A stretch of DNA of 51,410 nt from Macrostomum lignano (lineage: Eukaryota), in assembly GCA_002269645.1 (NCBI GenBank), contig NIVC01004296.1, positions 1 through 51,410 of the forward strand. The letters are read 5' to 3'. The notes under the pieces were generated by a model that did no database searches, was not told where the DNA came from, and saw nothing but the letters and a program-made list of their open reading frames with translations. A program made the position numbers and the translations under genes. This document shows positions 21,401 through 24,400 of this stretch, piece after piece; the stretch's first letter is position 1; each line of letters opens with the position of its first letter.

Positions 21401-24400
21401 TATCCGGTATCGGTATGGCGATAGCAAACTTCGAGAAGATGTCCAAGGCGGTTAGGATGTAGGTGTAGGCGATGCCCTGGAGACAGCTCGGTGGCAGTGG
21501 TCCGGTGATGTCGATGCTTAGACAGTCCATTGTAGTCGACTTCGGAATGGACTGTAGCTGCGGTTTCTGTCGTCGTCCTGTCTTTGATGCAGCACATGAA
21601 TGGCAGTTGTTGCAATACTGCTTGATGTCGCCGTACATAGTTGGCCAAAAGTAGTATTGTTCCACTCTCGCGATGGTCTTTGCGGCCGACAGGTGTCCAG
21701 CGAGTGGGTTGTCGTGCAGCTCGTTGAGAATTGCTTGCCGAAACGAATATGGTACGTAGATCTTAGGTTTATTGTCGCTCATCCAGTAGAGCCGTGACTT
21801 ATTGATTGTTAGGTGTTGTCGTTGCTTGCGTAAGAATTTTCGTTCCATGGGACTGAGCTTGATGTTCTTGTCGTCGTCTTTAACCGCTTGGTAGAAGTTG
21901 TCGCGCTCGGTTTCATCCACCAACTCCTTGATGTTAGGGATTGGATGAATGGCGTTGACTTCGTAGGCTCTTGACAGGGCGTCCGCGGCTTTGTTGGTAA
22001 TTCCTGGTTTGTAGACGAGTTTGTAGTTGTAATCCTGGATCTTGAGTGTCATCCTGATGAGTCGGTTGTTGGTCTGTCCTTTTGTAGTTACGACGTAGGT
22101 CAATGGTGCATGATCCGTGCGTACTATCGTCTGTATTGGAGAACCATAGATGTAGTAATGAAACTGTCGCAGGGCGAACAAGACTCCTAGTAGCTCTCGT
22201 TCCGTAGCTGACCACTTTGTTTCATTTGGTTTGAGTGCTCGACTGACGTAGGCAATAGGTCGTTCCTTCTTGTCCTCGGTTTCCTGTAGTAGGACTGCTC
22301 CGAGTCCCGTTCCTGAGGCGTCTGTCTCGATGATAAAGGGCTTGTCGAAGTCCGGATGCTGTAGCAATGCGTCTGATGTCAGCTGTCGTTTGATTTCGTC
22401 GAAACTTTCTTGTTGTCTTTGTGTCCAGTTGTCTTGCTTCCATTTGTCGAACTTGAGCAGGTCGTACAGTGGCTTTGCTGTCTTTGCGAAGTTAGGTAAG
22501 AACTTCCTGAAGTATTGTGCAAGTCCAAGGAATGATTGGACCTTCGTTATACTGGTTGGCGTAGGAAACTTTTTTACCTTCTCCACGTTGTCTGGGTCCG
22601 GTGAAATTCCTTTGGCTGTCACTTGGTGTCCTAGGTAACGCACGTTGTCTCGGAAGAATTTGCATTTCGTCGGTTGCAGCTTAAGACCTTGGCGTTGAAT
22701 GAGCGCCAGGGCCTTCTCCGTTGCTTCGTAGAGTCGCTCGAAATCCTCTCCATAGGCCAAAATGTCGTCGACATAGTGCAGCAGGTTCGTGCATCCTGCA
22801 AGCATGTATGCTGTCAGTCGGCTCATCGTTGCTGGGCTGTTGCTAAGTCCCATCGGCGATCGATTGTACTCGTAGACTTGTCCATTGTAGGTCTTGAAAG
22901 CTGTGTACTGGCGCGATTCCTTGTCGATTTCTATTTGCCAAAATCCATGACGTAGGTCGAATACCGTGAACAGTTTTGCCGTGTTGAGCTTCGCTAGTAG
23001 TTCGGAGATCTTCGGTAGGCTTTGCTGATCCGTCGGTATGTACTTGTTCAACAGTCTGAAGTCGCATACGAGTCGTCTTTCGTTAGTCTCCTTCTTTTGT
23101 ACCAGTAGGCACGGTGAGGAGTAAGCCGAAATAGCTTTGCTGATGATGCCGTGCTTTAGCATTTTATCGATGATTTCGTCAAAGTGTTGTTGCAGATGCT
23201 TGGCGATCGGGTACGGCTTGCACTGAATTGGTTCCGTGTGCGGTAGAAGCTTGATTTCCTGTTTAATGTCTTTAGCTCGTCCGATGTCGTAATCATGATG
23301 GCAGAAAGCTTCGTTGTACTTCCACAACAGTTGTCGAACTTTCTTCTTTTGTTGTTCCGTAATCGGGCTGTCGTCCAGGTTGATTTTCTTTTGGAACTCT
23401 TCCTCCGTTATTCGTGGAGTCGCGTGCTCAATCAGCATAACCGATGCCTGAGTGTTGAGATGACCGATGCACATTCCTTGTCGTAGATGAACCATTTCCG
23501 CGTTCGGGTTGAAGATTTGTACTGGCAGCTGTTTATCTTTTGCAACCAGCACTAGTGCCGTAGGCATCATAATTTGGTGTTTAGCCGTGACTCTTCTGTT
23601 TGGGTCGAATATCATTGCTTCCTCCGTTGCGTTAGTTGCCTTTGCCTTTATCCAGCAGGCGCTCTCCGGTTGGATGATGACATCTTGTTGCAATGTTACT
23701 TTTGGTAGTACTCGGATCTGGTTAATCAATGGTTGTTCTACCGAGTCGATCTTGAACGTTTGCTTATTGAAGTCGAAGGTCAATGGTAGTCGAAGCTGCT
23801 TGAACGTGTCGATGCCAACAATAACGTCCTGGTTTGGGAGTCTGTCGATGACGTACGTTGGAACTGTTAAGTGTTTATTAGCGATTCTTAAATCAATGTC
23901 GGCTTTTCCCAGAATGTTTAGCGAATGTCCTCCTGCTCCTGCAACTGCGATTGTTGCTGGTCGTAGTGCTAGTCGTAGTTTGCTGCACAGTTGTTTCGAT
24001 ATAACTGTAATCGAGCTGCCGGAGTCGAGCAGCGCTCGACATGGTAGATTGTTGATTACCACTTGAGCCATTGCCTTGCCAATTTCGGCGTGTAGAGTAC
24101 ATACGTAGTTCTCTGGCCATTTTGGGTCTTGCTGTTCTGCTTGATAGTTGGGTGGTTGTATTCTTGGTGCCGTTGGTGTTGTCGGAATCGATGGATATAG
24201 CCGCGTTGCTAGTGTCGGTTGCCCTTGAACCTCACGATGTGCAGTTTCTGTTAGTTCTAAACTGTTGTCGCCTTCCGTTGTCGTTCTTTGCATTATGGCA
24301 TTAACTGTCTTCTTAGCTGTTGGACAAGTTTGAGTGAAGCACCGTACGATCGACGAAATGATGAAGATTGCCGTGACAATCCACACAATGCAAGCACCGT

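Follow-up and report, generated by a model that had tools for sequence, protein, structure and literature searches.

Analysing a 51,410-nucleotide stretch of the Macrostomum lignano genome (contig NIVC01004296.1; hereafter the window), we found that the envelope protein (Env) of an intact retrotransposon ends in a predicted cytosolic tail carrying motifs for the ESCRT partners TSG101 and ALIX, and that these motifs are conserved across related families and enriched in distant relatives. This tail is probably a late-domain module, by which a matrix-less, membrane-tethered polyprotein would recruit TSG101 and ALIX, with a NEDD4-type ligase in addition, for enveloped release. The conserved TSG101 and ALIX motifs provide sequence evidence, independent of the ectodomain, of selection to engage ESCRT, and they bear on the question of how env-carrying invertebrate retrotransposons exit cells.

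The element is a recent and intact Ty3/gypsy insertion, with paired TG...CA long terminal repeats (LTRs), a target-site duplication (TSD), a primer-binding site (PBS) and the Pol order PR-RT-RH-IN recognized by Pfam (Table 1). It is inserted in an 18-bp G-rich minisatellite (18783-19024 and 29627-30440), within which the CCGG duplication falls, and is flanked by Gln-rich open frames (11166-13354, 18138-18797 and 29622-31508) amid several tandem-repeat arrays. Its Env is of the gB type, lies between gag and pol and has an ectodomain bounded by two hydrophobic segments, the combination that characterizes GAG-ENV-POL errantiviruses of the HSV/gB class. The ectodomain matches PF24664 at E 1.3e-5, which is below that profile's cut-off, and its structural model (pLDDT 69.5) has herpesvirus (HSV-1) gB as the best Foldseek match (E 1.3e-20), with 118 matches at E <= 0.001. 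The Gag model gives weak Foldseek matches, the best being dArc1, Arc and HIV CA (E 0.008-0.05). No matrix domain was seen in Gag, where the modelled capsid fold runs from the first Met and leaves no space upstream, which suggests that membrane attachment comes from the polyprotein itself. The Env tail follows the second hydrophobic segment (TM2) and runs directly into the protease, and its cytosolic placement is predicted from hydropathy and charge only. Between protease and RT, an apparently conserved hydrophobic stretch (~23260-23740; aa 1480-1640) has no Pfam match and resembles a dUTPase-like remnant.

Table 1. Features of the element and of its Env tail, in window coordinates
Feature	Coordinates	Strand	Basis and remarks
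Intact Ty3/gypsy element, domain order Gag-Env-PR-RT-RH-IN	19025..29626	(-)	Including LTRs
5' LTR, 855 nt, TG...CA ends	28772..29626	(-)	1 mismatch against 3' LTR; CCGG TSD on both sides
3' LTR, 855 nt	19025..19879	(-)	Purine-rich tract just before
Primer-binding site, 12 nt (TGGTGATCTCGC)	28759..28770	(-)	Identical 12 nt given for Mlig_errantivirus_2 in the supplement of PMC13524379
Single ORF Gag-Env-PR-RT-RH-IN, 2538 codons stop to stop	20562..28178	(-)	First Met at 28058
Gag: capsid domain from first Met, coiled coil, CCHC knuckle (27312-27353)	27312..28058	(-)
Cytosolic linker, 370 residues, charged, R/G/N-rich, then acidic	26205..27311	(-)	Motif-free in family A
TM1, internal signal anchor after Lys-rich stretch	26145..26204	(-)	Hydropathy 2.46 and charges; predicted topology
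Env ectodomain, class III/gB fold	24414..26144	(-)	Furin-type RRRR at 25206-25217; 6 N-glycosylation sequons
TM2, Env membrane anchor (aa 1256-1278)	24345..24413	(-)	Hydropathy 2.43
Predicted cytosolic Env tail, joining TM2 to protease	24117..24344	(-)	Position between TM2 and PR
LYPSI, aa 1327-1331	24186..24200	(-)	Fits ALIX V-domain motif [LM]YPx[LI] (motif per PMC8769072)
PTAP, aa 1335-1338	24165..24176	(-)	Fits TSG101 UEV motif P[TS]AP (motif per PMC8769072)
PPNY, aa 1342-1345	24144..24155	(-)	Fits WW-domain motif PPxY (motif per PMC8769072)
Trp-Pro, ~30 residues ahead of catalytic Asp	24114..24119	(-)	Candidate N-terminal cut of the protease
Aspartic protease, DSG, Asp (D1385) at 24024-24026	23739..24116	(-)	PF13650, E 2e-10
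RT, RNase H and integrase, Ty3/gypsy order	21234..23099	(-)	PF00078, PF17917/PF17919, PF17921, PF00665

The initial annotation had placed three late-domain motifs within 19 residues of the stretch that joins the Env membrane anchor to the protease, and this is borne out: LYPSI, PTAP and PPNY each lie in the reading frame of the minus-strand 2538-aa ORF (aa 1327-1345), behind the hydrophobic segment and ahead of D1385. The three motif classes came together in just 2 of 200,000 shuffles of the 83-aa tail. The accompanying remark that no such motif is visible in Gag is wrong to the letter, as YPAL stands at aa 113-116 (27831-27842), but right in substance. This YPAL looks structural, since it opens a capsid helix in a confidently modelled block (pLDDT ~92), is preceded by N rather than L or M, and keeps only its Tyr among 8 aligned Gags; we rejected it as a late domain. 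For one close copy, the public gene model (P0002) leaves out precisely the motif block (window 24138-24236) and shows GT..AG-like ends there. Splicing-out of the block is unlikely, as no joint at this place is listed in contigs from 4 runs and one contig spans most of the block unspliced; contigs can lose rare forms, and none of the carrier sequences is recorded as RNA. The gap in P0002 is probably a prediction artefact.

Within family A, the family of the window element, which has at least 55 matches to an Env-PR query in the host genome, the motifs are nearly invariant. We compared 55 loci, representing 47 distinct places because 8 were fetched twice. All three motifs are present in 53 of these loci, the other two having a frameshift inside PPNY, and PTAP is kept in every one. 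The wildcard positions vary and yet remain inside the consensus: the wildcard of PPxY is N in 46 loci, T in 4, G in 2 and I in 1, and YPSI is preceded by L in 49 loci and by M in the other 6, both of which fit the ALIX consensus. Among 19 ungapped haplotypes from 42 loci, with the 13 gapped loci excluded, none of the 10 motif-defining sites is variable vs 22 of 66 other tail sites (one-sided p ~0.03, calculated by hand; weak if taken alone).

Conservation in relatives was a check set beforehand by the initial annotation, and here its outcome was divided. We assembled seven env-carrying families, A to G, from the host genome or from proteins with the same species label (G is the protein P0005), with Env identities of 16-63%. 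Against the LYPSI-PTAP-PPNY series of family A, the tails carry PTAP followed by IYPKI in B, PPAP followed by LYPKI in C, PSAP in D, PSAP followed by IYPTI in E, PSAP followed at greater distance by LYPTL in G, and no motif in F. P[TS]AP and YPx[LI] are thus each present in 5 of 7 tails (shuffle means 0.15 and 0.30; 0 of 20,000 shuffles for either), and since L or I precedes every YPx[LI], the stricter [LMI]YPx[LI] also scores 5 of 7 (mean 0.04). These two classes therefore stood the check, whereas the three motifs as one conserved unit did not: PPxY occurs in a single tail against a shuffle mean of 0.35, which is not significant, and it is probably a family-specific addition in family A. In eight representatives, 13 motifs fall in 680 tail residues vs 8 in the 16,463 residues elsewhere. 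The counter-examples are family F with no motif, family C with PPAP replacing P[TS]AP, and family D without YPx[LI], to which one open-frame copy of family B (L032) adds a PNAP, 1 of 6 B copies examined.

The RT tree groups six of these families (A+B, D+G and C+E) into one clade with support 92/98, F having no RT in the fetched piece. Being related, the families represent three lineages and not seven independent events, and each lineage has both P[TS]AP and YPx[LI] in at least one member. Since the six families form one clade, the pair of P[TS]AP and hydrophobic-YPx[LI] is probably ancestral to this flatworm clade. The motifs are retained although the remaining tail is unalignable between lineages. 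B and E share an identical motif spacing at 23% Env identity and the order is reversed in A, a pattern that looks like motif turnover under selection.

Related motifs and other peculiarities were also seen elsewhere in these families. Family B has PPPY or PPAY in the cytosolic linker ahead of TM1 (L031, L032, L034 and L059), its tail being free of PPxY; downstream of its CCHC knuckles, family D shows PPRY and YPPI; and family G has a PSAP upstream of Env. In families D (L051:484-6741) and G (P0005), ~230-260 extra residues are inserted midway through the gB ectodomain, close to the furin region. Family F (L054), besides its motif-free tail, lacks a Gag CCHC knuckle and the Trp-Pro, and may use another route.

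Beyond this genome, one phmmer search with a query including the tail yielded a distant set of 149 proteins, the tail-only scores of distant matches being <3 bits; word-index homologue searches returned near-identical proteins only. An ectodomain-based profile scored 79 of the 149 as Env, from which P0005 was moved to the genome set and 31 were excluded (9 with no C-half core, 8 ending before TM2, 11 with no TM2 found and 3 with a tail <30 residues), leaving 47 tails. These proteins are at most 63% identical pairwise and include Haemonchus, Acrobeloides, Panagrolaimus and Globodera. Each motif class is found in 6 of the 47 tails, against expectations of 0.33 for P[TS]AP, 1.06 for YPx[LI] and 0.74 for PPxY, and 15 tails have at least one motif against 2.08 expected, none of these counts being reached in 1000 shuffles; the other 32 tails have no motif of the three classes. 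The enrichment persists under local 16-residue shuffles (2 of 1000 for YPx[LI], 0 of 1000 for the other classes), and tails contain 3.9 motifs per 1000 residues, compared with 0.3-0.4 in the ectodomain, Pol and Gag-side regions. TM2 was set by hydropathy, which is imperfect: the PTAP of P0008 is inside the tail in one parse and outside it in another, and two YPx[LI] matches lie near the membrane.

Short proline motifs in general abound in these tails. P[TS]AP occurs in 6 tails vs 0-1 for ten of its permutations, with [TS]APP, which partly overlaps it, at 4. PPxY, with a raw count of 6, is similar to PPxI (6), PPxV (5) and PPxT (5), and PxxPx[RK] is likewise enriched, in 11 of 47 tails vs 4.2.

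Elements of the same genome without env served as controls. We took 40 protease loci from Pfam match lists of the host genome, of which 38 could be parsed, giving 16 clusters; they are not close relatives of the window element, and the 20 loci of the first pass gave no Env signal. None of the 16 clusters has a motif in coding frame between 28 and 130 codons upstream of the catalytic Asp. At the level of sequence, this comparison shows that the tail motifs are specific to env-carrying elements. Three clusters have PPxY or YPxI near the start of Gag, one locus (L112) has two off-frame matches before its protease, and another (L127, 1 of 16 clusters) has a PTAP ~30 residues past the CCHC at the end of Gag, in an HIV p6-like position. 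The initial annotation had described the motifs as relocated to the glycoprotein from Gag, for which the empty control clusters provide no evidence of an ancestor with Gag motifs. The related idea that env insertion displaced an ancestral p6-like Gag C-terminus is likewise unsupported by these clusters, but it may yet hold, given the PTAP of L127, the off-frame matches of L112 and the distant relationship of the controls.

Taken as a late-domain module, the tail would operate as follows. One polyprotein would span the membrane twice, with Gag cytosolic and tethered by TM1, the gB ectodomain lumenal, and the tail and Pol cytosolic again. TM1 would replace a matrix domain in membrane attachment, and capsid assembly would gather Env trimers and hence many tails. 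From the motif matches, PTAP is predicted to bind TSG101 of ESCRT-I, LYPSI to bind ALIX, and PPNY in family A to bind a NEDD4-type ligase. As in retrovirus budding, ESCRT-III and VPS4 would sever the neck, and the enveloped particle may be shed from the plasma membrane or bud into a multivesicular body. Speculatively, a protease cut at the conserved Trp-Pro or close to it would release Pol and leave the motifs on Env.

The motifs point to particular host proteins that can be tested in a laboratory flatworm, and thus to a testable exit route for such elements. The host genome encodes a TSG101 UEV domain (L138:1474-1872; E 1e-44 vs human) and an ALIX V domain that retains the EGxKFY stretch, presumably the LYPxL pocket. 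HECT domains were also found, among which no WW-HECT ligase was specifically identified. The host UEV has His and Val in place of human Y63 and F142, two positions that we take to have a role in the PTAP pocket; these replacements might shift motif preference, and family C has PPAP. A complex prediction with the host UEV and a 48-residue piece of the tail scored 0.05 (mark 0.34) and carries no weight either way.

The same motifs could bind TSG101, ALIX and NEDD4 as cargo-sorting signals, sending Env or Env-Pol to multivesicular bodies for turnover, for exosome-like export or to keep the fusogen off the surface, with no neck scission. All the conservation evidence above fits this equally well. 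Transmembrane proteins are the usual site of ESCRT cargo signals, and the motifs sit on one. Moreover, expression from a single ORF would yield Env and Pol in the same amount as Gag, leaving a surplus that may need removal, and ZAM particles are described as taking endosome and exosome routes (PMC3383448). Still, we consider sorting unlikely as the main role. P[TS]AP, LYPxL and PPxY stacked together are the pattern of a viral budding module, as in MLV Gag, and the Gag of family A has no equivalent motif. Generic endocytic signals show no enrichment: YxxPhi lacking the proline (Y[^P]x[LIMFV]) is present in 3 of 7 families vs 2.4 expected and in 16 of 47 distant tails vs 16.5, and dileucine signals are also at chance level. 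An endocytosis signal of the AP-2 type was rejected on this ground, and these chance-level frequencies favour ALIX over AP-2.

It is more doubtful still that the block is an Env-Pol processing linker, in which LYPxI would be the element's own protease cleavage site, with an aromatic residue before proline, and PTAP and PPxY would be by-products of a proline-rich composition. Retroviral proteases can cut Tyr-Pro, the block is directly upstream of the protease, and in two distant proteins (P0009 and P0042) LYPxL is 34-36 residues ahead of the catalytic Asp, at the protease start, where other elements have Trp-Pro. That Trp-Pro lies 30-37 residues before the catalytic Asp in six of seven families (A-E and G) and is present in 14 of the 47 distant tails, against an expectation of 4.2; its recurrence makes it a candidate for the N-terminal cleavage site of the protease. 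Families A, B, C, E and G, however, carry YP plus a separate WP, P[TS]AP exceeds both its permutations and the local shuffles, and motifs are present in 5 of the 13 distant tails from protein records that end without a protease. A protease-cut role and an ALIX-binding role need not exclude each other.

That the motifs arose by chance in a proline-rich, disordered linker and spread through descent is very improbable and largely refuted: four-residue motifs are common, the families share ancestry and two thirds of the distant tails are motif-free, but the rarity of the window's combination among shuffles, the retention of motifs where the other tail sequence cannot be aligned across lineages and the separate enrichment in the 47 distant proteins all argue against it.

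Returning to the late-domain reading, we extend it with distinctly less confidence beyond this genome. In flatworms, nematodes and other invertebrates, the Gag-Env-Pol errantiviruses may be enveloped retroelements without a matrix domain, whose single polyprotein, spanning the membrane twice, takes over the role of MA through its TM1 tether and that of p6 through the late domains of its Env tail. Budding from the fusogen tail would then be an ancient assembly plan distinct from those of orthoretroviruses and insect errantiviruses, with motifs turning over between the two cytosolic stretches that flank the membrane segments. PPxY precedes TM1 in family B, and in families D and G motifs occur in both stretches.

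As an element type, the window element is known, since GAG-ENV-POL elements with a gB-type Env have already been catalogued, with Chary and Hayashi reporting them from nematodes, bryozoans and flatworms (PMC13524379). Its family is very probably Platyhelminthes_Rhabditophora_Mlig_errantivirus_2 of that survey, which likewise combines a Ty3/gypsy Pol with a gB-type Env that is placed between gag and pol and has a hydrophobic segment on either side of its ectodomain, which occurs in many near-identical copies, and whose listed features agree in the PBS (12 of 12 positions), LTR length (~864 vs 855 nt), Env type and species label. A protein 95% identical to that of the window element is also labelled Macrostomum lignano. 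The 2026 survey covers ectodomains and terms the transmission mechanism elusive outside Drosophila, and its main text makes no mention of late domains, ESCRT, budding or the word cytoplasmic (PMC13524379). In the literature that we searched, with most subscription journals outside its reach, we found no description of late-domain motifs in retrotransposon Env tails. The conserved Env-tail motifs are thus apparently undescribed so far. Nematode elements with a flipped order, which Sacco et al. reportedly described in 2022, could bear on this novelty.

Among better-studied systems, the Drosophila errantiviruses gypsy and ZAM are also env-carrying Ty3/gypsy elements that move between cells, and they differ in having separate gag, pol and env ORFs and an F-type Env; a review from 2012 points out that gypsy Gag has a sorting motif like that of EIAV, and describes errantivirus use of ESCRT as not known (PMC3383448). 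The initial annotation had stated that late domains normally sit in Gag or matrix proteins, and this holds as a rule with a known exception in bluetongue virus, whose NS3 is a two-pass membrane glycoprotein that carries PSAP and PPRY and bridges capsid and ESCRT (PMC7409164). NS3, in contrast to the Env described here, is non-structural, belongs to a dsRNA virus that lacks an envelope, is not a fusogen and is not covalently joined to capsid or polymerase. The closest parallel to the three stacked motifs is MLV Gag, in which PSAP, LYPAL and PPPY bring the same three classes into one polyprotein (PMC4848597, PMC8402826). In MLV, however, they lie in MA and p12 of Gag and budding proceeds without Env, whereas in the window element they follow the fusogen's membrane anchor, and its Gag shows no matrix domain. 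Compared with these systems, the tail described here would extend late domains to a class III fusogen and suggests an envelopment route for a capsid without a matrix domain.
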